Shown in pieces: positions 14,051-63,994 of a DNA stretch of 64,000 nt. Position 1 is the first letter of the stretch; each line of letters opens with the position of its first letter. Under the pieces are notes generated by a model. It worked only from the letters and a program-made list of their open reading frames with translations, was not told where the DNA came from and made no database searches. The stretch is from positions 11,884 through 75,883 of IMG/VR virus record IMGVR_UViG_3300048672_001143; one strand, written 5' to 3'. Source of the stretch: a virus (Duplodnaviria > Heunggongvirae > Uroviricota > Caudoviricetes). A program made the position numbers and the translations under genes.

Positions 14051-14076
14051 ACAACACAACACTAGGAATAAAGAAA

Positions 14077-14706: not shown

Positions 14707-14754
14707 TACCGACTACAAAACCCTTAATCAAACATTTTTAAAAGGATAGCAAAC

Positions 14755-15528: not shown

Positions 15529-15564
15529 TCAACACTTAACAATTCACTAAAAGGATAAAACGAA

Positions 15565-15990: not shown

Positions 15991-16048
15991 AACAAGGGGC
16001 CTCACGAGTTAAACAACACTTAACAATTCACTAAAAGGATAAGCGAAC

Positions 16049-16435
16049 ATGAACAAAGTAACATTACCAAAAGAAAAATACATTTCAAACGCCAAAAACT
16101 ATGACGGGGGTAAAGAACTCGTTTACAGGTTAACCGCGCTGGATTCAGAAACAGGTAAAACCTTGGTAGATATAAGGGCATGGGTATCACGTGGCAATCG
16201 CTTCGGGCCCGTTTACGCTTCAGCCTGGATAACGGATAGCGATAAAGAATTATGGTTATCGGGAAAAGGCCGCGCCGCGGGCGGTAATTACTTTAAGCGG
16301 GGCGTGGCGATACAGTTAGCAATTAAAAACGCGGGTATCCATTGCGGGGTATCCATTGAAGCGTATGGCGTCAAAGCGGCCGCGGTTGAAATTTGTAAAG
16401 CATTGGGATATCCAAAAGTATTCATTGTCGAGTAG
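16049..16435 (+). CDS. hypothetical protein
   Basis: ORF track; near-identical leader to the previous gene. Confidence 0.4.
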   Translation: MNKVTLPKEKYISNAKNYDGGKELVYRLTALDSETGKTLVDIRAWVSRGNRFGPVYASAWITDSDKELWLSGKGRAAGGNYFKRGVAIQLAIKNAGIHCGVSIEAYGVKAAAVEICKALGYPKVFIVE

Positions 16436-16444
16436 GGGGTAAAA

Positions 16445-16675
16445 ATGAGTATCGAAAACTTCACAGAGCCAACTAACATTGAACGCGCCGCGCGGATTAT
16501 AAAAGCGACAGACGAATACCTACACGAACTAGGCGAAGATATAGAAGATGCTACCGAGTACGAGTGCGCTTTCTTAGTGGCTGACATGATGCACGCGTGC
16601 AAAATCAAAAAACTCGACTTTAGCAAAGTTTTAACAATCGCTGAAAGCCATTTTCAGGAAGAGCAAGAATTTTAA
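16445..16675 (+). CDS. hypothetical acidic protein
   Basis: ORF track. Confidence 0.35.
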   Translation: MSIENFTEPTNIERAARIIKATDEYLHELGEDIEDATEYECAFLVADMMHACKIKKLDFSKVLTIAESHFQEEQEF

Positions 16676-16724
16676 AAACTAAAAACCTAACGAACCACTT
16701 TAACTTTTAAAAGGATAAAACACC

Positions 16725-31613: not shown

Positions 31614-32468
31614 ATGAAACGATGCTTAATAGGCTTGTCCACAATTCTACTCGGCGCCTGCTCGTATGTCGAGCCGGGATATGTCGGAATAAAAGTAAAT
31701 CTACTTGGCGGGGATAAGGGGGTTGATACTACTGAATTATCAGTAGGTCGGTATTGGATAGGGATGAACGAAAAGTTGTACACTTTCCCAACATTCGCGC
31801 AGTCTATGGTATGGACAAAAGATAAGACCGAGGGTAGCGTTAACGACGACTCGATGACTTTTCAGACCAAAGAGGGCCTGAGCGTTAATACTGACATAGG
31901 TATTACTTACTCGCTTGACCCTAAAAAAGTATCCGTAATCTTCCAAAAATACCGAAAAGGCGTTGAAGAAATTACTGCTGTCTACCTACGCAGTATGGTG
32001 CGGGATGCCTTAGTACAAGAAGCATCCAGCCGAGCGATTGAAAGCGTGTATGGGGAAGGTAAAGCAGACCTAATAACCAGAGTGCAGAATCGGGTACAGG
32101 AGCAAACAAAAGATATCGGGATAATAATTGAAAAGATATATTTCGTCGGGGATTTACGCCTCCCTGAAGTAGTCACAACGGCTATAAACGCTAAAATAAC
32201 GGCTACGCAAATGGCCGCGCAACGAGAGAATGAAGTCGCGCAGTCAAAAGCTGAAGCAGATAAATTAGTGGCCGAAGCTAGAGGTAGAGCAGATTCTCGT
32301 TTATTGGAAGCAAAAGCGGAAGCTGAAGCCATTAAAATTAAAGGCGACGCCCTTAGTCAAAATCCAAAATTGGTGGAGCTAAGCGCTGTAGAAAAGTGGG
32401 ATGGTAAGTTACCAACGTACATGTTGGGAAGCTCTACCCCGTTTATTCAGGTGCCGAGCACAAAGTAA
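31614..32468 (+). CDS. SPFH/Band-7 (prohibitin/HflC-like) lipoprotein
   Basis: Lipoprotein signal MKRCLIGLSTILLGAC; SPFH core GYVGIKVNLLGG ... and a long Ala/Glu coiled coil AEADKLVAEARGRADSRLLEAKAEAEAIKIKGDAL. Confidence 0.6.
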   Translation: MKRCLIGLSTILLGACSYVEPGYVGIKVNLLGGDKGVDTTELSVGRYWIGMNEKLYTFPTFAQSMVWTKDKTEGSVNDDSMTFQTKEGLSVNTDIGITYSLDPKKVSVIFQKYRKGVEEITAVYLRSMVRDALVQEASSRAIESVYGEGKADLITRVQNRVQEQTKDIGIIIEKIYFVGDLRLPEVVTTAINAKITATQMAAQRENEVAQSKAEADKLVAEARGRADSRLLEAKAEAEAIKIKGDALSQNPKLVELSAVEKWDGKLPTYMLGSSTPFIQVPSTK

Positions 32469-37070: not shown

Positions 37071-37270
37071 TGGAGAAAAGAACAACCACCAAAACGATCG
37101 TAGAAAAAACGATGGTATTTGGAGATTCAGAATTAGAAATTATTTTGCGCCAGCATTTTAATATGCCCAAAGGCAAGTTAGAAGTGGAACACGGCGAGGG
37201 AAATTACCTAACTGAATACACTTTTACAGAAACGCACACTACTGCAGAAACCGTCCCTGATGACATCTGA
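37067..37270 (+). CDS. hypothetical protein
   Basis: ORF track. Confidence 0.3.
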   Translation: MMEKRTTTKTIVEKTMVFGDSELEIILRQHFNMPKGKLEVEHGEGNYLTEYTFTETHTTAETVPDDI

Positions 37271-48468: not shown

Positions 48469-48861
48469 ATGTCGATTATTTTAGGGCAAAAACTAGGGAG
48501 AGAAGACAAGCCGTATTTGCAGCGGTGGGTAGTTGGAAATGCCAATTTTTCTATTCGGTTACACCATTGGTTTTACGGGGATGATCCGAGAGCTTTTCAC
48601 GACCATGCCTGGGATTTTATTTGCTTTGTAATAAAAGGCTCGTACTACGATGTTACAGAGTCGGGCGAGGAGTTCATGCCGAGAGGAACTATTCGGTTCC
48701 GAAAAGCAGGGCATAAACACACAGTAAAAACGGACGGATGTTGGACGATAGTTATAACAGGAAAAACTAAGCGTAAATGGGGATTCTGGGTTAAGAATAC
48801 CACAGGAAACCCAATTTGGCTTCGTGCCCGGCGGTATTTCTTTAAATACGGGCACCATTAA
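48469..48861 (+). CDS. hypothetical protein
   Basis: ORF track; about 190 nt of untranslated leader upstream. Confidence 0.35.
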   Translation: MSIILGQKLGREDKPYLQRWVVGNANFSIRLHHWFYGDDPRAFHDHAWDFICFVIKGSYYDVTESGEEFMPRGTIRFRKAGHKHTVKTDGCWTIVITGKTKRKWGFWVKNTTGNPIWLRARRYFFKYGHH

Positions 48862-48868
48862 AAGTTTT

Positions 48869-49001
48869 ACGGGGGTAGCTCAACGGGTTAGAGCGCTGTT
48901 AGGGGAAATAGTCATGAATAAAGTACCCGCGAGGTTCCGGCAGATCACCAGGACACGTAACGAAACAGAGGTTGGCGGTTCGAATCCCTCCCCTCGTACC
49001 A
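48869..49001 (+). tRNA. tRNA-like element with a ~57-nt insertion in the anticodon loop; ends in ACCA
   Basis: Acceptor ACGGGGG/CCCTCGT; D-arm GCTC-AACGGGTTA-GAGC; anticodon stem CTGTT ... AACAG separated by ~62 nt; T-arm GGCGG-TTCGAAT-CCCTC with one mismatch. Overlapping track ORF 48824..49051 judged noncoding. Confidence 0.4.
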
Positions 49002-49023
49002 ATTTCCTAAAGGGGAAAACACT

Positions 49024-49049
49024 CAAGCCCTTGCATGAGGGCTCTTTTT
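49024..49049 (+). terminator. rho-independent terminator AGCCCTTGCATGAGGGCTCTTTTT
   Basis: 6-bp stem plus T5. Confidence 0.55.
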
Positions 49050-49105
49050 AAATCGCTGGGACGGCTGCAAGCTAACGATTACTACAGCCCCAGCGATTTA
49101 AAAAG
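49046..49105. repeat. long inverted repeat TTTAAATCGCTGGG - 25 nt - CCCAGCGATTTAAA
   Basis: 14-bp perfect stem, read directly. Confidence 0.6.
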
Positions 49106-49460: not shown

Positions 49461-49538
49461 GCCACTTTAGCTTAGTCGGTTAAAGCAGGCCGCTCATAAC
49501 GGCAAGTGTGCTGGGTTCGAATCCCCCAAGTGGCACCA
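49461..49538 (+). tRNA. tRNA-Met/Ile2-like (anticodon CAU), CCA encoded; imperfect T-stem
   Basis: Acceptor GCCACTT/AAGTGGC perfect; D-arm GCTT-AGTCGGTTA-AAGC; anticodon arm GGCCG-CTCATAA-CGGCA; T-arm CTGGG-TTCGAAT-CCCCC has only 3 clean pairs. Confidence 0.55.
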
Positions 49539-49585
49539 ATTATTACTGAGCCCGCCAGTTGCGGGTATTTTTATCTGGAGAAACC

Positions 49586-50473
49586 ATGAAAAAACTGCTT
49601 ATCCTGGCCATTTTCTTATCGACGAGTGTTTTTGCGGACGATACGACGACGAATTCAAACAATACTAATACCTCGACGCAGACAAACACCATCGACCAGC
49701 ACGACACTGTGACCAATCAAACTACGGATACTTCTACACACGATTCGCATGCCGTAGATAATTCCGTTGACTCCGGCATTCACACAACTGAAGGCTCGTA
49801 TAATCAGGCGAACCAGTCTACTCAAACGATCAACAATACCAATACCGAAGGCGACTTAAGCCAATCTAAAAATACCGATTCGTTCAACACAAATTCTGGC
49901 AACAGTAACGGTTCAAATGTGCAACAAAGTGCGACCGGCGGTCAAAGTACTTCAGATGCGAAAGCGGGTGCAGCAGCGGTAGCTTTAGTAGGCGCTACAC
50001 AAGTCGGTGTAAGGACAGGGGCTACCCAGGTAAATACTGGCGGTACGAATGTTGCGTATACAAATAATCAAGTCCGCCAAACACCAATGGCTTGGGCACC
50101 CGCTATTGCTATGTCGCAGTCTCAAGAACTGTGTAATGTATCCGCTTCTCTTGGCTTAGCATTTGCGGGCGCAGCAGGTTCGGGCGGTATTCCTATCAAG
50201 GATGCGGATTGTAATCGACGCCGAGATGCTATTTTTTGGATGAACGTCGGCATGGCCGAGACAGCTTGCCAACGAATGATCCAGGATGACGCGAACAGAA
50301 AAGCGATGGAAGCTTCCGGCCAAAATTGCCATAGTGTGGCCCAAGCGCAAATTCGGCAAGTAATGGCCATCCCAAGCAATCTTAATGTCCCCAAGAACTC
50401 CTACTGGGATAAGATGGACCAAATCGCGGATGCGCAAATATCAGCGATACACACAAAATCGCTGACTAAATAA
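49586..50473 (+). CDS. secreted T/N/S-rich low-complexity protein with a Cys-containing C-terminal domain
   Basis: Signal peptide MKKLLILAIFLSTSVFA; ATG at 49586 after TCTGGAGAAACC (track TTG at 49559). Confidence 0.5.
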   Translation: MKKLLILAIFLSTSVFADDTTTNSNNTNTSTQTNTIDQHDTVTNQTTDTSTHDSHAVDNSVDSGIHTTEGSYNQANQSTQTINNTNTEGDLSQSKNTDSFNTNSGNSNGSNVQQSATGGQSTSDAKAGAAAVALVGATQVGVRTGATQVNTGGTNVAYTNNQVRQTPMAWAPAIAMSQSQELCNVSASLGLAFAGAAGSGGIPIKDADCNRRRDAIFWMNVGMAETACQRMIQDDANRKAMEASGQNCHSVAQAQIRQVMAIPSNLNVPKNSYWDKMDQIADAQISAIHTKSLTK

Positions 50474-50547
50474 AGCCTGTTTAAGCTATAAATATCCAGT
50501 ATCTCTTGTGATATACTAGATATTCTTTAAAACTGCCGAGAAAACAA

Positions 50548-52302
50548 ATGAAGAATTTTTTTATAACATCGATGCTATTTTCATTGGCATTTTCTGCAAA
50601 TGCAACTACCTACGGGCCGGTTGAAAACTTTGATACAACCAATACTACCGGGCATGACGCTCACGGCTTCGAAATCGAAGCTTGCGACGTACTGCCGTCT
50701 GATATTTCAAGTATTTTTGGTGATGTAAGCCGGTTTGGAACTGATCAGGTTGAGCGTTACGATGCGCCAACCGTTACCGAATACACTGACGCAGTTTGTC
50801 ACGGTACGCGTGTCAGCTACCGGGCAAAATTTGACGGCGTTAACTGGTCTGCAACCACGCCAAGCGGCGAACTACCTTATGCGCCTACGGATTCATGCTG
50901 GAAGTACGGCGATCCTAACTACAACACAACTACATATCCGTGTGATCATTTTGGTGTAAGCTTTAACAAAGCGCCGACTAAGCTTAAATACGCGTGGTTG
51001 ATCGAGTCAACACCGGGTAACTTAATTCAAACTGATGTTTACGTACCAAGCCCTATTTTCGACATTGTAACGCCTGCAGTCGTTGTACCTCCTGCCGCAC
51101 CTGGGGATGCGCCGATAATCATTAATCCGCCGGTTATCAATGTTCAGTTGGAAGCGGCTGAATTGCAGGCCGGTCAAGACTTTGGTACTCCATACTGGGT
51201 TAAAGTTAAAGCAACTTGCTTGAATGATAATGTTGCTGTTGAGCATCTTGTAAAAGACGGCGCAGTAATGGCTAACATGGAAACTGAGACAGAATGGCAG
51301 ATATTCCAGATCGACGCTGGCAATCCGGCCTCTGCGTTTCTTGATATGACGGCTACAAAAATCAGTAATTGTGCTGCCGGTGAAGCTTACACGATTGACG
51401 TATTTGAATATGCTGGCCCAGCCAAAGCGGGCGGAGAAATTGACTTGCAAGGTGCAAGCGATACGCCCGTTCTTGAACCTCCTACTTTAGGCAAATGGTT
51501 AGGCGCAAATAACGTTGGCGTTAACTACGTCGGTGATGTTCCAGTCGCTGCAATTGGCGGCCCTGCCGTTGTTCCTTCACCTACTCCAGCGCCTACTCCG
51601 TTGCCAACACCGGCTCCAGTCGCCTGCTCTGGTACTGATGTTGCAATTACAAGCATATCGGGAGCGTACCGGAATAGTAATATAGCCTTATTTGATGGCA
51701 CGATAATCCAGGCGCCTTACATAGGTACGGTGGACGGACTTGTGGCTATCCCGCAATTCGGACCTAATTATATACTTAACGGCGGGTTTGCAGTCGGTAA
51801 TACCGTAACTTTTACGGGTACTTTCGGCTCTGCAGTAGACGCTAATGGCGTGCCTGTGTTCTGTATCCCAGATACGGGATCTGATTTTACAGTTAATCCG
51901 GTAGCTACTCCAACCCCCGTGCCTACGCCAGTGCCTACGCCAGTGCCTACGCCAGTACCTACGCCAGTGCCTACGCCAGTACCTACGCCAGTACCTACGC
52001 CAGTACCTACGCCAGTACCTACGCCAGTACCTACGCCAGTACCTACACCAGTGCCTACGCCAGTGCCTACGCCAGTGCCTACGCCAGCCCCGGTATCCTG
52101 TGTAATAGCCGGTGCAAAAGTTGAAGGTAAAGGTGCTATTACTGCCGTTTCTGGAAACGTTGTAACGGTAAACGGAAAAACGATCACTGTTTTAGACTGC
52201 GCTGCAGTCGAATGGAATCGTGCAAACCACGCCTTCAAAGTCGGCGATAAGTTTGAATGGAAGGGCTTCGCAAATTCAGCAGTAAAAGTAACGCTTAACT
52301 AA
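50548..52302 (+). CDS. secreted protein with Pro/Thr linkers and a (PTPV)n tandem repeat
   Basis: Signal peptide [19 protein letters not shown]; [13 protein letters not shown] linker and about 20 PTPV repeats. Confidence 0.55.
51915..52088 (+). repeat. ~14 copies of a 12-nt tandem repeat CCTACGCCAGT(G/A) encoding (PTPV)n, approximate bounds
   Basis: Read directly; in-frame within CDS 50548..52302. Confidence 0.8.
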
Positions 52303-52305
52303 TCT

Positions 52306-52340
52306 TACCAAGCTAGGTCTACGGGCCTAGCTTTTTTTAG
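52306..52340 (+). terminator. rho-independent terminator AGCTAGGTCTACGGGCCTAGCTTTTTTT
   Basis: 7-bp stem plus T7, immediately after the stop. Confidence 0.6.
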
Positions 52341-52349
52341 GAGATAACG

Positions 52350-52499
52350 ATGGAAAAGACGGTAGAAGAACGATTAACGATGGTGGAAAATGCCCTGGCG
52401 CAATATTTTGCTTTTGGATGGACTAATTTCGGTGATCTGCCTTTAGCTGTACAAGAACTTGTCGAGTACGTGGAGTTAAGGAACGCACCCGACGAATAA
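52350..52499 (+). CDS. small hypothetical protein (49 aa)
   Basis: Own ORF MEKTVEERLTMVENALAQYFAFGW after TAGGAGATAACG. Confidence 0.3.
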   Translation: MEKTVEERLTMVENALAQYFAFGWTNFGDLPLAVQELVEYVELRNAPDE

Positions 52500-52519
52500 C
52501 CGAAGTACCTTATACATTC

Positions 52520-52548
52520 TAAGCGGGCTTAACGGCCCGCTTTTTTAC
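52520..52548 (+). terminator. rho-independent terminator AAGCGGGCTTAACGGCCCGCTTTTTT
   Basis: GC-rich stem plus T6. Confidence 0.6.
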
Positions 52549-52588
52549 CGCCGCTAGTCGGATACTAGTATCTTTCTGGAGAAATAAA

Positions 52589-54439
52589 ATGAAGAAAACC
52601 TTATTCCTAACCGCAGTAGCGCTTTTTACTGCCTTCCCCAATGCCTATGCCGTACAATGCTACGGAAATTCTAATTATCCAGGATGCCAATACGTCCCAG
52701 AAACTATTCCTACACCAGCCCCCGGTTCTCCTCCTATCCTACAAAGGGCTGTAATACCACTTCCGCCAGTTGTACCTAAGCCGCTACAGAACAAAATTTT
52801 ACGCCCGGATATAAGCGCCTTTAATAACGCTACTGTGGCTACTAACAATTTGCTTCCTAACGGCATACTATTCAAAGTTACGGCGGCGGATTGTAACAAT
52901 TCTATGGTGAACGAGGATATCGCCTCTATTAAGGCAACGCTAATAGCAGGACGTGAAATAGGTAGTTTTACCGATACAACAGTGGCTACCGTAAACAAAA
53001 CTGGCCTATTAGACAGGGTAAGTATTACTGCCGGTGCCGGAAGTTGGCAAGAAATCGTCCGAACGTACAATAATAGAATACTTACTGGAACCCCTATTCC
53101 ACCGGCTGTTACCGCAGCGTATGTAAATTTTTTGGCCGCAGTAAAGACTCTCGTAAATTCTACGTCGTGTTTAGAATATATGGGTCCTACTTCATACCAG
53201 ACAGAGACTTTATCCTCGCAGGGATTAGTAGACGTCGGCGCACTAACTAAGAATTTACGACTTGCTTCGTTTAGTTCAATCGTCAACTCTTTACGGGCCG
53301 ATCCCAATTATAAAGCCTTTGTTTCTACTGTGGCCACAATCGACGGCAAAAGAACGTATGCCAATACTTCAGCTGCTTATGTCGGGCGTTTACGCAAGGA
53401 ATTCAGCTTGATAAATGCGGAACCCGCAGTGGTTACAGGAACATCTTTTTTACATATGGATCTTTTAACGTCCATTTCCGGCATACTAGCGGATAGAAAT
53501 TGGCAGGTGCATTACGCCGTTCCTGGAGCTGCTGGTGACCATTTATACGGCGTAGCCGCAGGTATTTTTGACGCCGTTAATTGGCTCTATAAGGACGCCA
53601 TAGCTAGAAAGGTTCCGCAGAATAGCGTTATCGCCATACCAAGCGCTATGGATTATGTAGAGAGTAGAGCAGACGCGAACGTCGATGAATATGCAGCTTC
53701 AAGGGATATTGTTATTGTCCGATCTAGCAGTAATGTCAATCAAAAGAACGACGAGGCTTCTGTTAACAGTGCACAATCTATATCCGTCGGCTCATCGGTA
53801 AAAGGTATAGTTAGGGGAACAGTAGGACAAAATGGCCCCGACGTAGTAGTCCCATTGGATAGCGATTTACCCGCTTCAGCTAATGGGGGAAAAGTCCCTA
53901 AGATTTTCAATGGTGCTGCAGGAACTTTAATTTATACCGCTCCAGAAAACGTATCTAATAGCTATTCTACCGTGGTAGTAGCGCAATTACTTGGTACTAT
54001 ACGCGAAGTATGTCCGACAGCTTCTGCACAAGAGATAATTAATACTGCATGCGCCGCGGCTACAAAATTACCGCCCCTTGTTGGAAATACTGTTTCAACA
54101 AGGAATAATTTCGTCAAATGCGGTACTTTTAATCCCACATCTACCTTGCTGCAAGTAGTGCTTAAGAATTGCTCTGATAACATTACTAAAAAATGGACTC
54201 CATTAGTGATTGGCTTACGCTGGAATAACACATCGGTATCAAATGCTGTATTCGAAGCTATTAGCGCGGTCTGTGTAAACGCTGGGGGTTATGTGAAGAC
54301 CGAAGCCGGGAATATCGGTTCTTGTGTAAAACTGGTTGACCAATCTGTAAATATCCCAATAACTATCTACCAAACGCAAGCATTAGGATACTACGGGTAT
54401 TCGGCGTACCCAACTGGAAAATTCGCCAGATTCTTTTAA
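52589..54439 (+). CDS. secreted protein (616 aa)
   Basis: Signal peptide MKKTLFLTAVALFTAFPNAYA; leader TTTCTGGAGAAATAAA-ATG shared with neighbours. Confidence 0.5.
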   Translation: MKKTLFLTAVALFTAFPNAYAVQCYGNSNYPGCQYVPETIPTPAPGSPPILQRAVIPLPPVVPKPLQNKILRPDISAFNNATVATNNLLPNGILFKVTAADCNNSMVNEDIASIKATLIAGREIGSFTDTTVATVNKTGLLDRVSITAGAGSWQEIVRTYNNRILTGTPIPPAVTAAYVNFLAAVKTLVNSTSCLEYMGPTSYQTETLSSQGLVDVGALTKNLRLASFSSIVNSLRADPNYKAFVSTVATIDGKRTYANTSAAYVGRLRKEFSLINAEPAVVTGTSFLHMDLLTSISGILADRNWQVHYAVPGAAGDHLYGVAAGIFDAVNWLYKDAIARKVPQNSVIAIPSAMDYVESRADANVDEYAASRDIVIVRSSSNVNQKNDEASVNSAQSISVGSSVKGIVRGTVGQNGPDVVVPLDSDLPASANGGKVPKIFNGAAGTLIYTAPENVSNSYSTVVVAQLLGTIREVCPTASAQEIINTACAAATKLPPLVGNTVSTRNNFVKCGTFNPTSTLLQVVLKNCSDNITKKWTPLVIGLRWNNTSVSNAVFEAISAVCVNAGGYVKTEAGNIGSCVKLVDQSVNIPITIYQTQALGYYGYSAYPTGKFARFF

Positions 54440-54482
54440 TTTTATTGGGCCAAGGACGGCCTTCCTATCTGGAGAAATAAAA

Positions 54483-54698
54483 ATGCCCAACTCAAACAAC
54501 GACGCTTTTTTCGAAGAGCTACGCGAAAGAAACCGGTTTAAAAACGATACCTACTCAAACGAAGACCTGCAAAAGTTAATCGATGGTATGTATGAGCGCT
54601 ACGCTTCTCTTGGGGCTAACCAAGACAAGCACGCGTTGTTTAGAAAGATTTTAGAATTAATCGATGTGCAGATAGCGAGAGCAAAATCCGCTACCTAA
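54483..54698 (+). CDS. hypothetical protein
   Basis: ORF track; same CTGGAGAAATAAAA-ATG leader; stop overlaps the convergent giant ORF's stop. Confidence 0.35.
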   Translation: MPNSNNDAFFEELRERNRFKNDTYSNEDLQKLIDGMYERYASLGANQDKHALFRKILELIDVQIARAKSAT

Positions 54699-57600
54699 TC
54701 CCCATTTTCTTCCCGCAATCTGTTTTGTTCATAGAGGTACGCCAGTCTTGGATTTACGGCGTACCCTCTAATTCCTCTGGCCTGCTCGTTCTTAGCTGTT
54801 CTTACTGCCGATTTATGAATGCTTTCGTAAGTAATTGGCCACGATGGGTGATCTTTCTGCCACTTGCTCAACTCTTCCTGTGGAATCGGTTCGCCTTTTG
54901 TTACCGCTTTCTGGATCTTATTTACCAGTTTAGCGCGAGCATCGGATATCGCAGCTTCTGCGGCTTTATTATACCCGCGTTCAGCGTACAGCACTTCCAT
55001 ATTGGAACTACCCAACCCGATAGCCTGGAACAGTACTTCCATTGCAGAAGCGTCTTTCAATTGCTCCCCGTTCATACTTTCGTACCCAGACTGAGCTAAG
55101 CGGATAGCTTTCATTCCGTCGCCAATCGCTTTGGGCGTAGCGCTTTCTACCCCACGCCATATTTCCCCATCGCCTAGCATTTTTGCGCCATCAGCGATCT
55201 TCTTAACCATGCCACCGAATGGTCCTGCGACTTGTGAGAGATACTCAGTCGCAGCATCTTTCCCTTCCAGGTCTTTCAAAGGCTCTTGGAAGAAGATATT
55301 GCTCAAATTCATACGGGAGGCTAAGTTGACCGGGGTCAACGCATTGCCCAACCCTTTAATAACCGCCGTAGCGAAGGTTTCACCCCCGAGGGAAGTCAAT
55401 CCTACACGAACTTCCTTTTCTACGTCCCACGGCTCATCATCGTCGGATACGGCGTTGCCAAGAGCGTTTAGCACCATGGTTATCGCGCCCATCAAAGGCA
55501 TTCCAAATAAACCGGCAGCCGCACCCTGCATAACAAACAGCGCTGATAGCGATCTAGCTGCTTCTTTCGCTTCTGCTTTTCTGGCGTCGGCCAAAGCTAT
55601 TTCTTCCGGGGTATTTCTCGGCATTTTTTTCCAATACCCAAGCGTATCGACTGCGGTACGACCCCACAAATAAAGCATGGCCTGTGGATATTTTTTATAC
55701 TGCATAACCACGCCAGCTACAGGCCCGCGGAATATGCGAGCCGCGTTTTCAGTCGAGTAATCGCCGTGCGCATCATTGTTTAGCTTACGGGCATACTCCA
55801 AGGCTTCGTAGTGATTTTCTGGATCCCCGTTCAACGCTAAATCATAAGCCGCCAAGAGGGTAATTTCTCGGTTCATCCGCTCACCGTGGTGAAACATCCA
55901 ACCCATCTTTTTGTTGAATTCTTGCAGGCGACCGCCGTAATCTTCCCCTTCACGGCCGATGCCCAAAACATCGAAGAAGTTGGTCCTGGAAACATCACCC
56001 TCTTCTTTAAAATCGCGTAAAGCAGCTAAGCGCCTGGAGATGCGGAGCATTTCTCTAGGATCGCCGTTGTGCGCCCGGAGATAAGCTAATTTTTCTTCCA
56101 TTACCACTGAGATAGATACGTTCCCGTCTTCATCCCGGTAAATGTAATTTCCATTGGCGTCTTTCTTGTTGAAGTTGATAACCGCTTTAAGGAATTCATT
56201 TCTGGTATTTCCAAAAGCTTTTCGGGTTGCATTAACCCCGTATTTACCTACCGCAATGGGCATAGCCACAACGGGTGTTTGAAATAAGTTGACTAAACCA
56301 CTTGATAAACCGAAACCCATAGTCATAACGAAGTCGAATTGGCGAATAGCCGCAGCCACCTGATCCATGCCTGTACTAGAAGTGTTCACCATCGCATTGT
56401 AGGTCTTATTCAACTCTTCGATGGTGTATGCGGCTTTGTGGCTGTTCTCAGTGTTTATGTGGCTAGCAGCTTCTAAAGCTTCCTTATTGCGTACCGCTAC
56501 TCTTTCCAAAGATTCTTCCGGGGAACCTACGGATACCGTATTTTCCCACAACGTTTGCACTTTTCTAAAGCGTTTTACCTGCTCTGGAATTCCAGTAGCT
56601 ATAATATCTGCTATGGCTGCTTCCACTCGCTGTGGGTCTTGGTATTGAGCCCAAAAGCTGGCTATTTTTTCAGCGGTTTTAAGCGCGTCGGAAGCTTCTG
56701 CGCGTTCCCGTGCAGTAGTCGCTTCCGATAGGTTTTTCTGCGCTATGAATAAAGCTTTTGGAACTTTGTTAGCGATATCTAGATGGCTGAATTTATTGCG
56801 TAGCTTAATCGCTTCATCGTACAGATTCTGTTCTTCCGCCGGCGCGTTATCCCTGAGCTCCTCTAAGGCACCTTCTTGTTTCAACTCGTCCCAATTCGCC
56901 CCCAACATTTCAGCCGCTTGCATTTCAGTACGCTTTGCTTCACGAGCAGAAGTTTTAGTCGCTATGTCCAGTGCCAGCTTAGCATCTCGGAGAGATTCGC
57001 CCATGTTACGACCTTCCACCATATTGGCTAATTGGGAAGCTCCGTGGTGGATAGTGTTGGCAAAAGCCCGCATAGCATCTTCATCGAAGCCTTTTGTGCC
57101 TTTGCGGTGCATAGCGTTGTGCCGGACCGAAATATCTGGCAACGTTGCCAAATACATTTGGTGGATCTCATCTTGCAACTCTTTAGAAACCTCGATTGGG
57201 ATATCCGCCGCATCGATTTTCTCGTGAATATTTTTCAAGAAGTTGTCCGATACAGCATCCCCAATCTGCGCGTTTTGCATTTCGCTTAATGAAGTTCCCT
57301 GATCTCTTACCGTTCCACCTTCAGCTTCGAAGTTCTTTACCGCCCGTTTTCTAGCGGCTAAAGACTCATAAGTCATGAACCAGTTTTCGCCTTGGGCATC
57401 TTTTCCGTAAAACCAATGATCCCCGTAACGCTTCAACGGTGCGTAGTACCAGGATAGTGACTGGGATTCAAATTTTATCCGGAGTTGCGCGATCAATCCT
57501 GCCGCAGTTTGAGCATCGATCATCGACTCTTCGATCCGGTGTTCGAGTGCTTCCAGGCGGGCGTTGAATATCTCCTGGTGGAGTTCGTATGTGCCTGAAT

Positions 57601-60600
57601 AAATTTTAGCGGCTTCTGGATTGGTAGATACTAAGGTATCGTAAGCCGGTTTCAAGTTAGCATAAGACTGCCGGCGTAAAATGTTAGAATCTTTCCAGCC
57701 GTTTTTAGCGCGTTTTTCAGTTTGTTTTTGGTCAATCTCGTGCAGTTTGGTCAAGAACTGCTGGGCCTCTTCTTGCGTAGCGAAAGTCGCTGAATTCTTA
57801 TCTGATAAGATAGCACCGGCCTGATCAGCGGCTTCTGACAGCGCAGTTCGGCTTTCCCCGTTGAATTCTGTCATCGAGTACGCTTTAAATTGCCCGCGCA
57901 GTGTTCTCTCTACACCAAGCCAATCTTTGGAGACGTTAATGTCCCGAAGCGTCGACTGTTGCATTATACGACCAGTTTCTTTACGAGCTGGAATCGGTAA
58001 ACCCTTCCACTTGATCGTGGTAATCTGATTCGCTTTATGTAAGTACGGGTCCACCATCGCACGGCGACGCTGCATACCTTCTTCGTAAGTTTTTAGCCCC
58101 GGCAGATAGGATTTAGCGGACTCGATAATCTGGCGAACGGACAAGAACGCTAATTTTTCTTTAGAAAGCGTTTCGAGGAGATTGTCTTTTTTATCCTGTA
58201 ACTCACTTGCGGCTACTCTTAACCCTTCCGGCAGATATTCGGCTACTGCTTCACGCGTGCTGCGGGACGGCCTGCTGAACATCGGCATGCCTTCTGAAAG
58301 AATTTTCTCTTTCATTTCTGGCGTGATGATCAAAGCGGGTTGGTCCTTCAATCGCCCGCCGGCTTTCATTCGTTTTTGGTCTTCTGGGGTTAGGGATTTC
58401 CCTTGCAATGAATCTCGGTAAGGAATACCAATAACAACAGGAACCGATTCAATTTTCCCGCCCCTTTTACGCGCGATTTCCATAGCCGCTTGGGTAATCA
58501 GCGCTGGTTTTCCCTGCGCATTTAAACCGTTTCCGTCGCCGTACATGGCTTGCGTCCAAGCCCCGCCTATTTTAAGATCAAGGCCCGATAATTCTCTAGC
58601 TACGGGAGAAACTTCATCTTCCGGCTCAAAACCTACAGACCCCTGTGATTTAGTGCCTTCCATTCCGATTATCTTGCCCGCTAGGTCTTTCCCAACGTAC
58701 TCTTCAAGTTGCTCCGGGGACTGATCAAATCGGGTATCTACACTATCACCACCCATATCGAAAATGTTTATATCGAATTTTCCGTTGCGCTTTACGTACC
58801 TAATCTTACTAACTTGAGCGCTAAGATCATACCGATCTGCTTGTTGATCACCCGTTGTCCAGGCCACAGAATTGCTATCGCTGTCTATCGCTTGGCTGAT
58901 CGCTTTTTTCATCAGTAAAGAAATATAAGCGTTTGTTGCTTTAGTATTGGAATCGGTAACGAATGGCGCCGCTGGTATTCCTAGTTCTGGCATCCTTTCT
59001 AATTTTCGTATTTCATCTAGAATATCTTGCCTTTTAGACTGAAGACTGACGAATTCTTCGTCAAATTCCTCATCCATACCCGCCTTTAAAGCTAATTCAT
59101 GCATTCGCCCACGTAACTTCACATTTTGATCTTTTAATTCCAGAAGATGCCGTTCTTCGGCATCCGTTAAGGGCCTGTTAAATCCCAGTTTTCTGCCCGC
59201 TTGACTACGTTGGCTTTGTACTTCTTCCAAGAATAAAACTTTATTGCCGTTCGCGTCGATTCGGGTATTGTGTCGAATCCAGCCAATTTGCTTACCTTCT
59301 CCTGTATCACCAAAATGCGTGTGATCGTTCCGGTTGTAAGGCTCCGTAGTTGGTATGGTAACTACAAGTTCGCGGTAATCTACTCCGCCGGGAAGTGTTA
59401 ACTGTGCGTTATCGTGTTTAGGTTGTTGCTTCCGCTGCTGTTCTAAAATATTAACTGTATCCGATAAGTTCTGGTATCTGTCTTTTTCGCTTCTAGATAA
59501 ATCATCAAACTTTATTCTGCCGTATTTAGAATGCTGCTCTGCTCTAAAGTGGTTCATTTCTTCTAACGTAGAACGCAATTTATTTTCGAGCTGCGTATCG
59601 GTACCTAACACCTTATCCTCAACTTTCACGCCGTTAGCGTCCAGAAAATCGCTAACCTGTGCCCGAGACACTTTTCCGGAAAGAGAATCCAACCAATCCG
59701 TAATCCCTGACCAATAAATTTCGTCTTTCTTAACGTCAAATTTAGGCGCGTTGGCCACTAACCAGACTTTCACTTGCTGCGCGTTGCCAAAAACTTTCTC
59801 CGGTGCTTTTTCAACCGCTTTGCTTAGAGCCGAATAAAATCTTGGCGCAGGTTCAGAAGGTCGGCTAAACATTGGCGCTTCAATATCTGATTCGCTAAAC
59901 GGACTCGATTGCACATTCCTTCCGGTCCGTAATTGCGCCTCTGTTTCTGTGCGTTTTCCAGACCATACTGGAACCCCACCCCAGCGATTAGTGTTCGGCG
60001 CTGGGATGATAGAAACGACAGAGTAAACCTGCCCGCCGTTCTGCCTATCCGCTTGCTTACTGACAACCAAAGCCTGCTGCAGCCTAGAAGACCGAAATAT
60101 TAAATGTCCTTTGTCTCGGAATATCTGATCAAAGCCTTTGGCAATCGAACTGACGTGCCGGGCGTAATTTTCAGCGACTTCACTGGTATATCCCGGCACT
60201 GTTCTGCGATCTTTTTCACGAATCGCGTTATCGTGGATGTGCGTAATACCAAAACCTCTATGCTCGGCTGTGGCCACGCCTACCCGTAATTTGATCGGTA
60301 GTTGCTCTACCCCTTTAGAAACCGCTTCACGAGGCGTCATCGCAATAACGCCGTTCATATTACCTTCAAACTGCGGAGTTTCTGGCACAATGAAATCTTC
60401 TACCGATTTCCGAATCCCGTGTAACCGGCGAGATTGTTGCGCTTCTGAATTAAATACCCTTAGCGAAGTAGAATCTCGGTTAGCCGCGGAAGCTAGACTA
60501 GCGCGAAGTAAATCGTGGATATCTTTTTCGCCCATTTTACCGGTGATAAACCCCCGGCCAATACCGTGGGTTACCAAAAAGGATTTGATTTGAGAAATAA

Positions 60601-63600
60601 GGCGTTTAAACCAGCCAGCGTTGGGCGCGTACTCTCCCATCTTGGCGATAACTTCGGCAACGAAAGGTTCCCCGCCGACTTCTAAATGGTCGTAACTTTG
60701 CGCGACTTCGTTCCATATACGTTGCGCGTAGGACCCATCAATCTTGGCCAGATTAGTGATCTGTTTTTGCAGTGAGGAATACCCGTCAGTTCCGAGTATT
60801 CTGCGGAGGTTATAATGCTCCCCAATTTCGTGGAGTACGACTGCTGCCAATCGGTGCGCCGGAGTAGCCGCTAAGTCGATGTGCGCTTTACCCTTAAAAT
60901 AGATAGCCTCATCGTCCGATTGTAAGCTTTCCCCACCCGGCCAATCTTCTTTGCCCTGCGTAAAATTCAAAGTACCGTTGGCAACCAAGGTGTTTATGCC
61001 CGGTCCAAATTTATTTACGAGGTGCGCAATAGCCTCTTCCTGAGTAGCGAATCTCGATTTAAGGTACTCATGGACTTCAGGCTGCTGTAATAACGCTTCG
61101 GTTATCCCTGCTGGTTTTGCCTCAGTAGCCCCTTCGCTAGGAGTTGCTGCACCAGCTCGGCCTCTTTTTCCGCCTGTTGGGCTTTTAACTCTTTTAGCCT
61201 TTTTCGATGGTCCCCCATTATCCGTGCTGGGTGATCCGCTAGATGCGATATCCCCAGTCGTTCCAGTCTGGTTTCGTCTGACATACTCTTCTCCACGTTT
61301 ACCCGCATCTAATTCACGGCTAGATAATTCAAAAATCGATGATAAATCCGTTCCCGGAATAATCGGGCTTTGCCCAAGATAAAGGCCAACCCCATTAGGT
61401 TTTTCAGCCCCAGGCTTAGATTTCGGATGTGGAATGTGGCTTAAGCTAACGGTATTTATGTATTTAGATACCCGCTGTTTAGCGTTTTCCATCGCTTGCT
61501 TAATGGTCGCGTCAGTTCCACCTGTAACAACGGCGCTTAGTTCATCCCCGCCGTGACGGATTAAAACAGCATGCCCTGCTTTACGCATAGAATCCGCAAA
61601 AATATCGCTTATGTTTCGAAATGTGACATTCGCCAAGTGTGCGTTATTTCCAAATTCGGTATTCAATCCGCCTAGGTTTGCGATATCCGCCTCTATGAAA
61701 TGCGCGGGCTCGCCAGTTTCTGCGACATGCTCCATCGCAGCCTTGACAGTTGGCTCCTTATCATGTGGCATGTGAAAACCGGTAACCGCATCCATACTCT
61801 CATCAGGAACTATCTTCTCAATGGTAGCCTCGTCCTTTAATCCGGCCTCTCTGGCCAACTGCCGGCGTTCGGCTATCCGTCGTTCGCTAGGCGATAGAAA
61901 ATCTACCCGCCGCCGATCTTGTGATACTCGTTGCCCTACACTAGCTAAAGCGGCTTCGATATCGCTTGGGTGTTGCGCTTTTACTTTCTGAACGATATCC
62001 TGATTTGCTCTTGGTTTTATGCCTAGACTCTTCGCCACGCGAAGGATCGCTTCATTCGGGAGCGTGTCTATTTTAGCATCGAGTACCGCGTGTTTATCTT
62101 CTAAGCTTACTTCTTGCCCTTTTTCTGGTGATTCTTCTTGCGGGGCTGTGTTCTGGCTTTGGTCATTTAGTTGCTCTGTGGGTTGTGAAATGGGTGCTTC
62201 GGATGTTGCCGGTTCTGTATTCCCGATCCCTTGTCCGCTCGGTTGAAATCCTCCGCCACTGACTGCGGTATCCCCACCTTCTTGGCGAATTTCGGATTGT
62301 GCGCTGCTGCCGCCATCAGGCGTGCTTGGGCTGGACTCTTGGATGGCATTTTGGCTCTCCTGCGACTGGGATCTGCGCTGTATCTCTTCTAAAATAATCT
62401 GTTTTTGGATAGGGGACGTGCCATTTAATACATAATTTTTCAATAGGCTTTTCTTATCCATTCCGCGTATAGCCGTTTGATAAGCCGCATTGTCCGCATC
62501 GATAACCGATTGTTTTACATTTTCTACAGCTTCTATTTGCGGCTGCGCCACTTGATTATCTAAGGCAACAGAAGCCGCGCGATTAAAAATACCATCCGGG
62601 GCCGTTGCCAAATGCTCCTTTAAAGGCTCCGTTACGGCGCTTACTGCTTCAGAAGTTCTTTCTTCCGGTGTTGGTATTTTGTTAGCCGCAATGTGTGCTT
62701 CCATTGCGTCAAGGACTGATTGTGCGGAATCTCCGCGATTGGCCTGGATCCCTAGCTTAGAAGCGGCGTCCGCCAAACGTTTAGTAACTTGCTGCGTTCG
62801 TCCTGCAGGCGTATACGCTTTCTTATAAGCGTCAACGAAATCTTGACTCTCCCGTAGGATAGTCTGATCATCCGTATTTTCAGGTTCTTCTGCTTGCTCG
62901 GCTTCTACTACTTGTTCAGATGGCGTATTTTCTACAGTACCCGCTGGCAAGTAATCCGCTAATAAACTATCTACCTCTGGGGTACTGGGCTCTCCCGCAG
63001 TATTTTCAGGCTCCGCCAGTAACCCTTGTTGTTGATCAATTACCGCTTGTTCTTCAGGAGAAATATTACTCGGCTGCTCCGTCGCGTGCGTTAGCGCACC
63101 CGTAGGAGCGCCCATACCAAAACCGGCTACTGCTCCTAAAGCTGCGGCATTTCCTACACCTTCACCGATATCTTTTCCTAAAGCTAAATTAGAAGCCGCC
63201 TGCTCTTGCCCGGATTGCGCTGTTTCTTGTCCAGCTTCCACCAAGCCACTTTCAAGCCCACGTCTTACCGCATTTTTAGCGGTTGGCTCAATAGCATTCT
63301 GCCCGCCTATAAGCGCAGTGTTAACATCCCCAACGCCTAATTTATTGGCTAATCTTCCCGCACCACCGGTAATCGCACCAGTTAATGCGCCGCTACCGGC
63401 TAAGACCGCTGTTTGCTCCGGAGTTAATAATCCGTTTTCAGTCTGTTGGCGAACCTGCTCGACGTTTTGACCCGCAGTTACACCACCTTCTCCAATGGCG
63501 CCTGCCGCCGAGGGAGATAATTTAGGAGCTACACTCATAGCACCTTTAGCGAGGCCCGCCCCTCCCAGCATAGAAGGCGCAGATTCTAGGATAGTGTGTG

Positions 63601-63994
63601 CAGCAACGGAGGGATTCTCTGCGACGGCTTTTAGAGTGGGTACAAAGCCTTCCGCTTCTTGTACATTTTGAAAAGCTTTTTTCTGCGCCGGAGAATATTC
63701 TTCGGATAAAATATCTTTGGCGCGTTTGAAATCGACGCCGTTTTCTTGAAGGGTTTTACCTATCCGGCCACCTGTTGGTATGTCGGCTAATCCGACTGCA
63801 GTTTCCGGAACCGCGATAATACCTTTTAAAGCGGTGATCCCCGCATCTTTCGCCCTATCGCTGAGGGTTGTTTCGGGTTCTGGCTCCGGAGTCTTCGGCA
63901 TGTAATCTGCCAGTAGTGAGTCTACGTCCGGAGTCTGAGATTTAGGCAGGTAATCTGCCAGCAATGAATCTACGCCTGGTGCGGTAGCCGCCAT
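54695..63994 (-). CDS. giant multidomain (polyvalent) protein of at least 3099 aa with GGDEF-like palm domain and HExxH zincin motif; N-terminus may lie beyond the window
   Basis: Single uninterrupted frame. RHGGDEL preceded by EADIANLGGLNTEFGN (aa ~766-820). VVLHEIGEHYNL (aa ~1052-1063). N-terminal VDSLLADYLP x3; PMFSRPS x2. Antisense track ORFs inside it are artefacts. Confidence 0.7.
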   Translation of the reverse strand: MAATAPGVDSLLADYLPKSQTPDVDSLLADYMPKTPEPEPETTLSDRAKDAGITALKGIIAVPETAVGLADIPTGGRIGKTLQENGVDFKRAKDILSEEYSPAQKKAFQNVQEAEGFVPTLKAVAENPSVAAHTILESAPSMLGGAGLAKGAMSVAPKLSPSAAGAIGEGGVTAGQNVEQVRQQTENGLLTPEQTAVLAGSGALTGAITGGAGRLANKLGVGDVNTALIGGQNAIEPTAKNAVRRGLESGLVEAGQETAQSGQEQAASNLALGKDIGEGVGNAAALGAVAGFGMGAPTGALTHATEQPSNISPEEQAVIDQQQGLLAEPENTAGEPSTPEVDSLLADYLPAGTVENTPSEQVVEAEQAEEPENTDDQTILRESQDFVDAYKKAYTPAGRTQQVTKRLADAASKLGIQANRGDSAQSVLDAMEAHIAANKIPTPEERTSEAVSAVTEPLKEHLATAPDGIFNRAASVALDNQVAQPQIEAVENVKQSVIDADNAAYQTAIRGMDKKSLLKNYVLNGTSPIQKQIILEEIQRRSQSQESQNAIQESSPSTPDGGSSAQSEIRQEGGDTAVSGGGFQPSGQGIGNTEPATSEAPISQPTEQLNDQSQNTAPQEESPEKGQEVSLEDKHAVLDAKIDTLPNEAILRVAKSLGIKPRANQDIVQKVKAQHPSDIEAALASVGQRVSQDRRRVDFLSPSERRIAERRQLAREAGLKDEATIEKIVPDESMDAVTGFHMPHDKEPTVKAAMEHVAETGEPAHFIEADIANLGGLNTEFGNNAHLANVTFRNISDIFADSMRKAGHAVLIRHGGDELSAVVTGGTDATIKQAMENAKQRVSKYINTVSLSHIPHPKSKPGAEKPNGVGLYLGQSPIIPGTDLSSIFELSSRELDAGKRGEEYVRRNQTGTTGDIASSGSPSTDNGGPSKKAKRVKSPTGGKRGRAGAATPSEGATEAKPAGITEALLQQPEVHEYLKSRFATQEEAIAHLVNKFGPGINTLVANGTLNFTQGKEDWPGGESLQSDDEAIYFKGKAHIDLAATPAHRLAAVVLHEIGEHYNLRRILGTDGYSSLQKQITNLAKIDGSYAQRIWNEVAQSYDHLEVGGEPFVAEVIAKMGEYAPNAGWFKRLISQIKSFLVTHGIGRGFITGKMGEKDIHDLLRASLASAANRDSTSLRVFNSEAQQSRRLHGIRKSVEDFIVPETPQFEGNMNGVIAMTPREAVSKGVEQLPIKLRVGVATAEHRGFGITHIHDNAIREKDRRTVPGYTSEVAENYARHVSSIAKGFDQIFRDKGHLIFRSSRLQQALVVSKQADRQNGGQVYSVVSIIPAPNTNRWGGVPVWSGKRTETEAQLRTGRNVQSSPFSESDIEAPMFSRPSEPAPRFYSALSKAVEKAPEKVFGNAQQVKVWLVANAPKFDVKKDEIYWSGITDWLDSLSGKVSRAQVSDFLDANGVKVEDKVLGTDTQLENKLRSTLEEMNHFRAEQHSKYGRIKFDDLSRSEKDRYQNLSDTVNILEQQRKQQPKHDNAQLTLPGGVDYRELVVTIPTTEPYNRNDHTHFGDTGEGKQIGWIRHNTRIDANGNKVLFLEEVQSQRSQAGRKLGFNRPLTDAEERHLLELKDQNVKLRGRMHELALKAGMDEEFDEEFVSLQSKRQDILDEIRKLERMPELGIPAAPFVTDSNTKATNAYISLLMKKAISQAIDSDSNSVAWTTGDQQADRYDLSAQVSKIRYVKRNGKFDINIFDMGGDSVDTRFDQSPEQLEEYVGKDLAGKIIGMEGTKSQGSVGFEPEDEVSPVARELSGLDLKIGGAWTQAMYGDGNGLNAQGKPALITQAAMEIARKRGGKIESVPVVIGIPYRDSLQGKSLTPEDQKRMKAGGRLKDQPALIITPEMKEKILSEGMPMFSRPSRSTREAVAEYLPEGLRVAASELQDKKDNLLETLSKEKLAFLSVRQIIESAKSYLPGLKTYEEGMQRRRAMVDPYLHKANQITTIKWKGLPIPARKETGRIMQQSTLRDINVSKDWLGVERTLRGQFKAYSMTEFNGESRTALSEAADQAGAILSDKNSATFATQEEAQQFLTKLHEIDQKQTEKRAKNGWKDSNILRRQSYANLKPAYDTLVSTNPEAAKIYSGTYELHQEIFNARLEALEHRIEESMIDAQTAAGLIAQLRIKFESQSLSWYYAPLKRYGDHWFYGKDAQGENWFMTYESLAARKRAVKNFEAEGGTVRDQGTSLSEMQNAQIGDAVSDNFLKNIHEKIDAADIPIEVSKELQDEIHQMYLATLPDISVRHNAMHRKGTKGFDEDAMRAFANTIHHGASQLANMVEGRNMGESLRDAKLALDIATKTSAREAKRTEMQAAEMLGANWDELKQEGALEELRDNAPAEEQNLYDEAIKLRNKFSHLDIANKVPKALFIAQKNLSEATTARERAEASDALKTAEKIASFWAQYQDPQRVEAAIADIIATGIPEQVKRFRKVQTLWENTVSVGSPEESLERVAVRNKEALEAASHINTENSHKAAYTIEELNKTYNAMVNTSSTGMDQVAAAIRQFDFVMTMGFGLSSGLVNLFQTPVVAMPIAVGKYGVNATRKAFGNTRNEFLKAVINFNKKDANGNYIYRDEDGNVSISVVMEEKLAYLRAHNGDPREMLRISRRLAALRDFKEEGDVSRTNFFDVLGIGREGEDYGGRLQEFNKKMGWMFHHGERMNREITLLAAYDLALNGDPENHYEALEYARKLNNDAHGDYSTENAARIFRGPVAGVVMQYKKYPQAMLYLWGRTAVDTLGYWKKMPRNTPEEIALADARKAEAKEAARSLSALFVMQGAAAGLFGMPLMGAITMVLNALGNAVSDDDEPWDVEKEVRVGLTSLGGETFATAVIKGLGNALTPVNLASRMNLSNIFFQEPLKDLEGKDAATEYLSQVAGPFGGMVKKIADGAKMLGDGEIWRGVESATPKAIGDGMKAIRLAQSGYESMNGEQLKDASAMEVLFQAIGLGSSNMEVLYAERGYNKAAEAAISDARAKLVNKIQKAVTKGEPIPQEELSKWQKDHPSWPITYESIHKSAVRTAKNEQARGIRGYAVNPRLAYLYEQNRLREENGD

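Follow-up and report, generated by a model that had tools for sequence, protein, structure and literature searches.

A recombining slot of exported proteins, one of them a probable divergent subtilase, in an uncultured phage

Phages of virulent type have few exported proteins, and most of these are unstudied. The Llp lipoprotein of T5 and the Imm and Spackle proteins of T4 are exported phage proteins of superinfection exclusion, and the locus described here shares with them a position outside the structural modules, export to the envelope and variability between relatives, one of which (L008) also has a lipoprotein at the locus. However, no sequence similarity relates those proteins to the ones described here, and they bind or block, whereas the candidate effector at this locus is a protease. 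Accessory cassettes and phage-annotated subtilases are already known kinds of element, the 'Subtilisin DY' annotated in Bacillus phage vB_BcoS-136 being, with subtilisins BPN' and Savinase, among the known systems closest to our candidate. The subject of this work is a block of three plus-strand genes, g1, g2 and g3, in a stretch of 64,000 nucleotides (nt) of viral DNA (positions 11,884 to 75,883 of the IMG/VR record IMGVR_UViG_3300048672_001143; hereafter the window), which is a portion of a ~88-kb uncultured phage contig. On balance, we take these genes to form a lineage-specific, recombining accessory ('moron-like') cassette, in which all large products are Sec-exported and which sits where an early gene array meets a late giant gene. 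New in this locus are the extreme divergence of an S8 protease subfamily, the repeated association of this subfamily with the g1 family and a slot filled by exported proteins only.

The three open reading frames (ORFs) are present on the plus strand (Table 1), and each of them opens, as an earlier note on this DNA had proposed, with a canonical Sec type I signal peptide, in which a basic n-region and a hydrophobic core of 12-13 residues lead up to an A/V-x-A cleavage site. Cleavage is predicted between MKKLLILAIFLSTSVFA and DD in g1, between a 19-residue peptide and TT in g2, and between MKKTLFLTAVALFTAFPNAYA and VQ in g3. Signal peptides were judged by reading the sequence (basic n-region, uncharged h-region of 10-15 residues, small residues at -3 and -1) together with a simple heuristic scan, and both identified g1, g2 and g3 as carrying Sec signal peptides for signal peptidase I (SPase I). 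These peptides are kept in every homologue of the three proteins that was found, the bacterial ones included. The scan flagged 5 of the 88 gene calls in the window, the two outside the block being a Band-7 lipoprotein and a likely shadow ORF, and the chance of three adjacent matches was estimated at roughly 0.003; since three of the five positive calls fall in the block, the clustering of signal-peptide genes is real. The lipoprotein, of the SPFH/Band-7 type and with an LLGAC lipobox (31614-32468, plus strand; phrog_200, Pfam Band_7), is encoded in the replication region and is the sole other credible exported protein in the window.

Secretion had been considered atypical for core phage functions, and these products do look like exported non-core accessory proteins, with homologues in early or replication regions or in bacterial chromosomes and none in structural modules. 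They might instead be virion components, such as tail fibres or Ig-like decoration proteins, with signal peptides that are artefacts of a wrong choice of start codon, an explanation that could draw on the adjacent giant virion-protein gene and on the Pro/Thr (PT) linkers and Ig-like domains known in phage fibres and decoration proteins. It is hardly credible, as the starts have good Shine-Dalgarno sequences, the hydrophobic N-termini and A-x-A sites are conserved in all homologues, bacterial ones too, and the genes lie on the strand opposite to the structural genes. Moreover, no structural PHROG was matched, and neither blastn with the block nor tblastn with each protein gave a real match in the 50,697 phage genomes of INPHARED.

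The earlier note had suggested a comparison with related phages as a way of recognising a variable cassette, and two related contigs indeed carry other sets of signal-peptide genes at the same junction. The order g1-g2-orf49-g3-orf71 of the window is replaced by g1-201aa-orf44-g3 in one of them (L052) and by 185aa-650aa-176aa lipoprotein-g2 in the other (L008). In L052, a flanking gene of 130 amino acids (aa), 'cysteine dioxygenase' in PHROGs, keeps 96.6% DNA identity to that of the window, and the cassette contains g1 (82% nt identity), a signal-peptide protein of 201 aa, an ORF of 44 aa that is similar to the 49-aa ORF of the window and a g3 orthologue (48% aa identity), without g2 and without the tRNA-Met that borders the cassette in the window. 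This tRNA is a precise ~78-bp presence/absence difference in the alignment with L052 (2427-2430), where the flanks of the indel are kept, including the terminator and the Shine-Dalgarno sequence upstream of g1. Between the two contigs, synonymous divergence (dS) jumps from 0.25 in the flanking gene to 1.5 in g1 or to saturation within the cassette, which indicates that the cassette is a recombination mosaic. In L008, whose giant-gene C-terminus has 84% protein identity to that of the window, the interval from the same conserved 77-aa gene to the giant gene holds four genes. Two of them encode signal-peptide proteins of 185 and 650 aa, the third a G/S/N-rich lipoprotein of 176 aa with an LLNAC lipobox, and the fourth is a g2 orthologue (69% identity) that has a PTPV array as well; g1, g3, the tRNA-Met and the 71-aa ORF are absent from this locus. 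Beside the giant gene of 29 more distant relatives, all metagenomic and from IMG/VR, no signal-peptide genes were found, four of the 394 calls being positive and all of these apparently spurious. Vibrio phage 1F273_PE002, the one named isolate inspected, is uninformative as a comparison because its genome ends just after the giant gene, and locus searches based on the A1 and A2 alignments were set aside, these alignments being too divergent to use.

The cassette thus resembles the morons, a concept from lambdoid phages, in being non-core, placed between modules, accompanied by terminators, present, absent or swapped in close relatives, and divergent in a way unlike its flanks. It differs from them in that the backbone is apparently of a lytic type, that no clear autonomous promoters were found, and that every large cassette gene in the three related phages has an export signal, which marks the locus as a dedicated 'secretome' slot rather than a mixed collection of genes. 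As for the backbone, the C-terminal half of the giant gene product is ~26-27% identical to PLxRFG/DarB-like proteins of podophages such as Erwinia PEp14, Klebsiella SopranoGao, Serratia Parlo and Vibrio 1F273_PE002, whose genomes, at ~60 kb, are smaller than the ~88-kb contig described here.

The third gene, g3, whose kinship with subtilisins the earlier note had not recognised, encodes a member of a new and very divergent S8 subfamily, as judged by remote homology and a structural model, with its active site probably intact. A word-indexed search with g3 returned only the query, and an exhaustive HMMER search of 1.84 billion cluster representatives found seven relatives (a family of eight), of which the four most distant (P0139-P0142) exceed the Pfam Peptidase_S8 cut-off of 21.8 bits with scores of 23-31. 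Built from all eight sequences, a profile matches dozens of PDB subtilisins (best E 2.3e-7), and in the alignment with subtilisin BPN' the residues D252, H289, N382 and S458 of g3 take the places of D32, H64, N155 and S221, with S458 being invariant across the family. In this line, the AlphaFold2 (AF2) model of g3, built on this alignment, reaches a predicted local distance difference test score (pLDDT) of ~80-90 over residues 214-616, its top 50 PDB matches in Foldseek are all subtilases (E 2.5e-10, target template modelling score 0.70-0.74), and its best viral matches are annotated subtilases of phages and giant viruses. With subtilisins BPN' and Savinase (MEROPS S8, PF00082), g3 shares the alpha/beta fold, the D-H-(N)-S order and a Sec signal peptide as in exoenzymes, but it is only ~17% identical to them, has non-canonical motifs and an extra N-region and C-domain, and shows no recognisable I9 propeptide. 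The N-region (~190 aa, residues 22-213) contains a Cys-x8-Cys loop, a Pro-rich stretch and a helical segment modelled at low confidence, and the C-terminal ~115 aa are beta-rich and contain Cys. The relatives are mostly found in phage-like contigs, in early-gene regions in two of these (L038 and L039), and one in a bacterial chromosome (L051). In L008, the 650-aa signal-peptide protein (13936-15888, minus strand) bears a subtilase-like serine-region motif, GSFSASSSSLCAGAVGALATVIVKENPSWTA, and has no Pfam match; against the g3 family, BLASTP gave nothing and hhalign a weak local match at the Ser motif (E 0.003, probability 10%). This protein may be another divergent protease.

The first gene, g1, was previously described as encoding 304 aa and is best read as encoding 295, most likely from ATG 49586, since a GGAG lies 8 nt upstream of this codon and the TTG start of the 304-aa reading falls inside the upstream terminator. 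Its product is the T/N/S-rich protein announced in the block (T 11.9%, S 10.2%, N 10.2%), with a conserved and predicted disordered region at aa ~18-150. All of its 14 homologues are metagenomic and share one architecture, a signal peptide, an N/S/T/Q-rich region and a ~140-aa domain in which four Cys (183, 209, 228 and 248) and a C-terminal Lys are invariant and which probably holds two disulfides. In comparison with the L052 orthologue, the ratio of non-synonymous to synonymous divergence (dN/dS) is 0.05 and equally low in the low-complexity half, which argues that g1 is under purifying selection over its full length and that the N/T/S-rich part is no mere spacer. Searches of billions of proteins put the family at about 17 members; IMG/VR scans with g1 or g3 as single proteins yielded nothing, and a metagenome scan added one short g1 contig only. 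The family has no PDB match by profile search and no Pfam or NCBIfam relative, and g1 matches weakly (E 4e-5) the function-unknown phrog_20531. As to genomic context, g1-family genes neighbour RecT/SSB genes in L001 and helicase/primase genes in L002, a contig with a weak integrase match, and in L054 the g1-family gene ends a DNA polymerase/helicase array and is followed by a gene that, on a reading of its sequence, resembles an M15/VanY-type peptidoglycan peptidase; in none of the three does it lie in a structural module.

The linkage between the g1 and g3 families extends beyond the window. In L039, a g1-family gene with all four Cys kept (hhalign 96.7%, E 4.5e-10; hmmsearch 4.5e-14) lies directly downstream of a g3-like gene whose S8-like product is ~23-26% identical to g3, and L052 keeps orthologues of both with the intervening gene exchanged. 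Since both families are very rare, an accidental linkage is unlikely. Each family also occurs alone, g1-family genes without a g3-like gene within 10 kb in L001, L002 and L054 and a g3-like gene without g1 in L038, and the pairing is therefore not obligatory. One way to read this linkage is a two-component module, with g1 being the dedicated substrate, pro-protein or periplasmic inhibitor of g3, where either the g1 C-domain, once processed, or a timed release of the protease would produce the effect on the envelope. The adjacency in L039, the retention of both genes in L052 where g2 has been swapped, the rarity of the two families (8 and about 17 members) and the purifying selection on the low-complexity half of g1 are all in its favour; the solitary genes count against it, and so does the finding of no similarity to known subtilisin inhibitors or propeptides in Pfam and PDB profile searches. 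Moreover, L039 has TSCPD and ThyX genes, as this phage does, and may be a remote relative of it, so that the linkage may be partly inherited rather than independently selected. This explanation, which overlaps with that of an exported accessory cassette acting on the envelope, seems to us rather doubtful.

Homology indicates that the middle gene, g2, is derived from a family of bacterial secreted Ig-domain proteins of Methylococcales and relatives. Downstream of its N-domain come a PT linker (aa ~339-357), a middle domain (~358-445), a PTPV array (~452-516) and a DUF5666-like C-domain (~517-584). The Pro/Thr linkers and the array had been correctly noticed, and the ~20 PTPV repeats then counted come down to 13.8 copies of the tandem repeat, about 14-16 units, or ~15-16 when degenerate ends are counted. 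Nearly all of the 1323 database matches of g2 are low-complexity artefacts of the PT repeats, and its matches to PADLOC 'REase_II' and to phrog_15511 were rejected on the same grounds. The real match, P0002, is 40% identical over aa 1-335 and similar again at the C-terminus, and scanning genomes revealed ten homologues, all chromosomal, in Methylobacter/Methylococcales, Thiodictyon, Moraxellaceae and other gammaproteobacterial metagenome-assembled genomes (MAGs). These bacterial proteins are secreted and 750-850 aa long. Their N-domain is that of g2 (38-42% identical over aa 1-336; GPVENFD and YPCDHFGVS are invariant), and they also have 3-4 He_PIG repeats of the Ig-like type and a C-terminus similar to that of g2. 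The phage versions share with them the signal peptide, the ~320-aa N-domain and the DUF5666-like C-terminus, which is sub-threshold in g2 (16.1 bits) and in the L008 orthologue (19.5 bits; cut-off 27), but have PT and PTPV linkers and a ~90-aa domain replacing the He_PIG (PF05345) repeats, which the Pfam scan detected in all bacterial homologues scanned and neither in g2 nor in its L008 orthologue. A profile of the N-domain had no match in PDB. The architecture of the family suggests an extracellular or surface protein.

One bacterial g2 homologue adjoins a two-partner-secretion giant exoprotein, and another, in a Methylococcales MAG (L046, 11107-16211, plus strand), lies directly upstream of a curli operon with Curlin_rpt proteins and one protein that reads as CsgG-like. 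A gammaproteobacterial MAG encodes, at a distance of ~3 kb from its main g2 homologue, a paralogue of the N-domain ('YGALSNFD'; L041, 3584-5119, minus strand) in fusion with He_PIG and a dockerin domain. This bacterial kinship raises the explanation that the exported proteins are host-benefit or lysogenic-conversion-type factors. The protease and the Ig/PT-linker protein would then work extracellularly, helping the infected or lysogenised host to acquire nutrients, to adhere or to remodel the biofilm matrix, and would not be directed against other phages. The descent of g2, the exoprotein and curli neighbours of its homologues, the typical role of secreted subtilases as extracellular degradative enzymes and the weak integrase match in the g1-bearing contig L002 fit such factors. 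We regard them as rather unlikely, given that no integrase or repressor was found among the window ORFs scanned, that the backbone resembles lytic PLxRFG-type podophages, and that high turnover between near-identical backbones suits conflict-driven genes better than metabolic ones.

For the accessory cassette, a conflict at the level of the envelope is the best fit, because the genes are placed at the end of the early array, are exclusively exported and are rapidly exchanged between near-identical backbones; a slot of signal-peptide genes only, refilled between near-identical phages, points to the cell envelope as the place of such a conflict. During infection, the exported proteins would act from the periplasm or the cell surface to remodel the envelope of the host, with g3 as a protease cutting exposed proteins of the envelope or receptors, and with g1 and g2 attaching to surface structures or hiding them. 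As an outcome, superinfection by the same or competing phages would be blocked and fewer progeny would be lost on cell debris. Here g3 would be the enzymatic effector and g1 its partner or substrate, and the site of action would be the periplasm or surface of a Gram-negative host, possibly a Methylococcales-like one. We put forward this specific function in envelope remodelling and superinfection exclusion as a tentative proposal; surface modification, adhesion and biofilm formation, which the earlier note had also listed, are plausible as well. In its narrowest form, a g3-type subtilase and a g1-type four-Cys protein would constitute an undescribed exported protease module of phages that removes or processes receptors (pili, S-layer, outer-membrane proteins) from within a recombination-refilled 'secretome slot', which is speculative and, in our estimate, improbable. 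If g3 does cleave phage receptors or surface layers, a proteolytic mechanism would be added to the superinfection-exclusion repertoire. A divergent secreted subtilase with its catalytic residues kept and linked to a small disulfide protein is, in this regard, an experimentally tractable entry point, and the weak host clue, Methylococcales-like Gammaproteobacteria, concerns an uncultured ~90-kb phage lineage.

The same export signals would also suit accessories of lysis and release, that is, periplasmic proteins helping to degrade the envelope or outer layers such as S-layer or capsule proteins late in infection. A protease could attack a proteinaceous outer layer, and the g1-family gene of L054 stands directly upstream of the M15/VanY-type-looking peptidase gene, a possible endolysin. 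Nevertheless, the genes end an early/replication array apart from holin and endolysin genes, and in the window none of the genes near them was identified as a holin, endolysin or spanin. Conservation among close relatives is the norm for lysis genes, unlike for this swapped cassette, and lysis accessories are very improbable.

Several observations weigh against the proposed cassette of envelope effectors. Scans of g1, g2 and g3 against Pfam, NCBIfam and PHROGs gave nothing informative or significant, and none of the three resembles a known exclusion, receptor-modifying or defence protein, PADLOC yielding the PT-repeat artefact only. The g3 protein itself has no Pfam match at E<=1 and fails the PF00082 gathering score, and in place of the canonical D-[ST]-G, H-G-T-H and G-T-S-x-A-x-P it has TIDGK, LHMD and NSYSTVV, with SSNVN as a further non-canonical motif, so it could be a pseudo-protease or an enzyme of unusual activity. 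The AF2 model of g1, built from 15 sequences, has a pLDDT of 38, with the C-domain helical at low confidence, and was discarded for fold searches, and the g2 domains are without a usable fold prediction. Together with the solitary members of the g1 and g3 families, the terminators directly upstream of g1 and g3 belong to this list, as they leave the timing and level of expression uncertain, and the clue to a Methylococcales-like host rests on g2 homologues at 40% identity only. Literature searches on secreted phage subtilases and related methanotroph phages gave no paper bearing on the locus.

Regulatory signals had been another argument for a coordinated cassette, in the form of a shared initiation motif and a strong terminator for each gene, and as stated it fails. 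The window has three exact copies of the motif TCTGGAGAAA (0.24 expected), one each ahead of g1, of g3 and of the 71-aa ORF, so that sharing holds for g1 and g3; the motif does not precede g2, where the upstream sequence is CTGCCGAGAAAACAA-ATG, and one-mismatch variants stand before other genes across the genome (17 found against 4.2 expected). This distribution shows TCTGGAGAAA to be the preferred Shine-Dalgarno context of the phage and not a mark of the cassette, and a cassette-specific regulatory signal was accordingly rejected. Among the three genes, only g2 has a strong terminator of its own, g1 being followed by a weak AT-rich hairpin only and g3 by no canonical terminator. Nor are the genes strictly consecutive, as the 49-aa ORF lies between g2 and g3. 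No promoter with at least 9 of 12 matches was found in the intergenic regions of the block. A perfect 12-bp palindrome, GATACTAGTATC (52561-52572, plus strand), is placed after the terminator and ahead of the Shine-Dalgarno sequence of g3; because this palindrome occurs once in the window and shows no statistical enrichment, a palindromic operator common to g2 and g3 was rejected.

In the wider setting of the window, packaging and portal genes occupy ~1-10 kb on the minus strand, and a long plus-strand run of early, replication and nucleotide-metabolism genes extends from ~12 to 49 kb, including an exonuclease, DNA polymerase I (37260-39671), ThyX, an SNF2 helicase, TSCPD and a DHH phosphoesterase. 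This array closes with the tRNA-Met, followed by the g1-g2-g3 block, which converges on the giant minus-strand gene (Table 1).

Table 1. Positions in the window of the cassette genes, their signals and the bordering features
Feature	Position	Strand	Remarks
Portal gene	2977-5358	minus	
Large terminase gene	7334-9037	minus	
Small terminase gene	9034-9837	minus	
tRNA-Met (CAT)	49461-49538	plus	left cassette border; ARAGORN; Rfam 50.6 bits
Strong intrinsic terminator, directly upstream of g1	49550-49573	plus	hairpin GCCCGC...GCGGGT (49550-49566) and T-run; conserved in L052
TCTGGAGAAA, Shine-Dalgarno context of g1	49574-49583	plus	exact 10-mer
g1, 295 aa	49586-50473	plus	signal peptide aa 1-17; N/T/S/Q-rich region ~aa 18-150; C-domain ~aa 150-295
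g2, 584 aa	50548-52302	plus	signal peptide aa 1-19; N-domain aa 20-335
Tandem 12-nt repeat in g2	51922-52087	plus	13.8 copies, 96% matches; encodes (PTPV)n; repeat also in L008 orthologue
Strong intrinsic terminator after g2	52310-52340	plus	10-bp stem, T7 tail; hairpin 52310-52333, -18.5 kcal/mol, z = -3.98
49-aa ORF, upstream of g3	52350-52499	plus	no signal peptide
Strong terminator between 49-aa ORF and g3	52524-52551	plus	hairpin GCGGGCC...GGCCCGC (52524-52545) and T6
TCTGGAGAAA before g3	52575-52584	plus	same exact 10-mer
g3, 616 aa, divergent S8 subtilase-like	52589-54439	plus	signal peptide aa 1-21; N-region 22-213; subtilisin-fold domain ~214-500; C-domain ~500-616
Catalytic codons of g3	D252 53342-53344; H289 53453-53455; N382 53732-53734; S458 53960-53962	plus	
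TCTGGAGAAA before 71-aa ORF	54468-54477	plus	same exact 10-mer
71-aa ORF, final plus-strand gene before giant gene	54483-54698	plus	no signal peptide; TCTGGAGAAA context; absent from L008
Giant PLxRFG/DarB-like polyvalent virion-protein gene	54695-63994	minus	right border; at least 3099 aa; GGDEF and LPD39 domains

At the left border, Rfam detected a second tRNA (48869-48998, plus strand; 39.4 bits, above gathering) that ARAGORN missed; with 65 nt inserted in its anticodon-loop region, it could be a tRNA that is disrupted or contains an intron. This region is 96.6% identical in L052, and the 75-aa ORF at 48824-49051 is probably spurious. At the right border, the giant and probably injected virion protein contains GGDEF and LPD39 domains at aa 734-854 and 1930-2164, the former being a diguanylate-cyclase domain above the Pfam cut-off (E 5.7e-6), so that a domain making cyclic di-GMP adjoins a cassette of exported proteins. 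Finally, the motif TTTAAAAGGATA is found ~8-10 nt before the ATG of five early genes (window positions 12146-16717, plus strand; 6 matches against 1.8 expected), a translation or promoter context that differs from the GGAGAAA context seen elsewhere.

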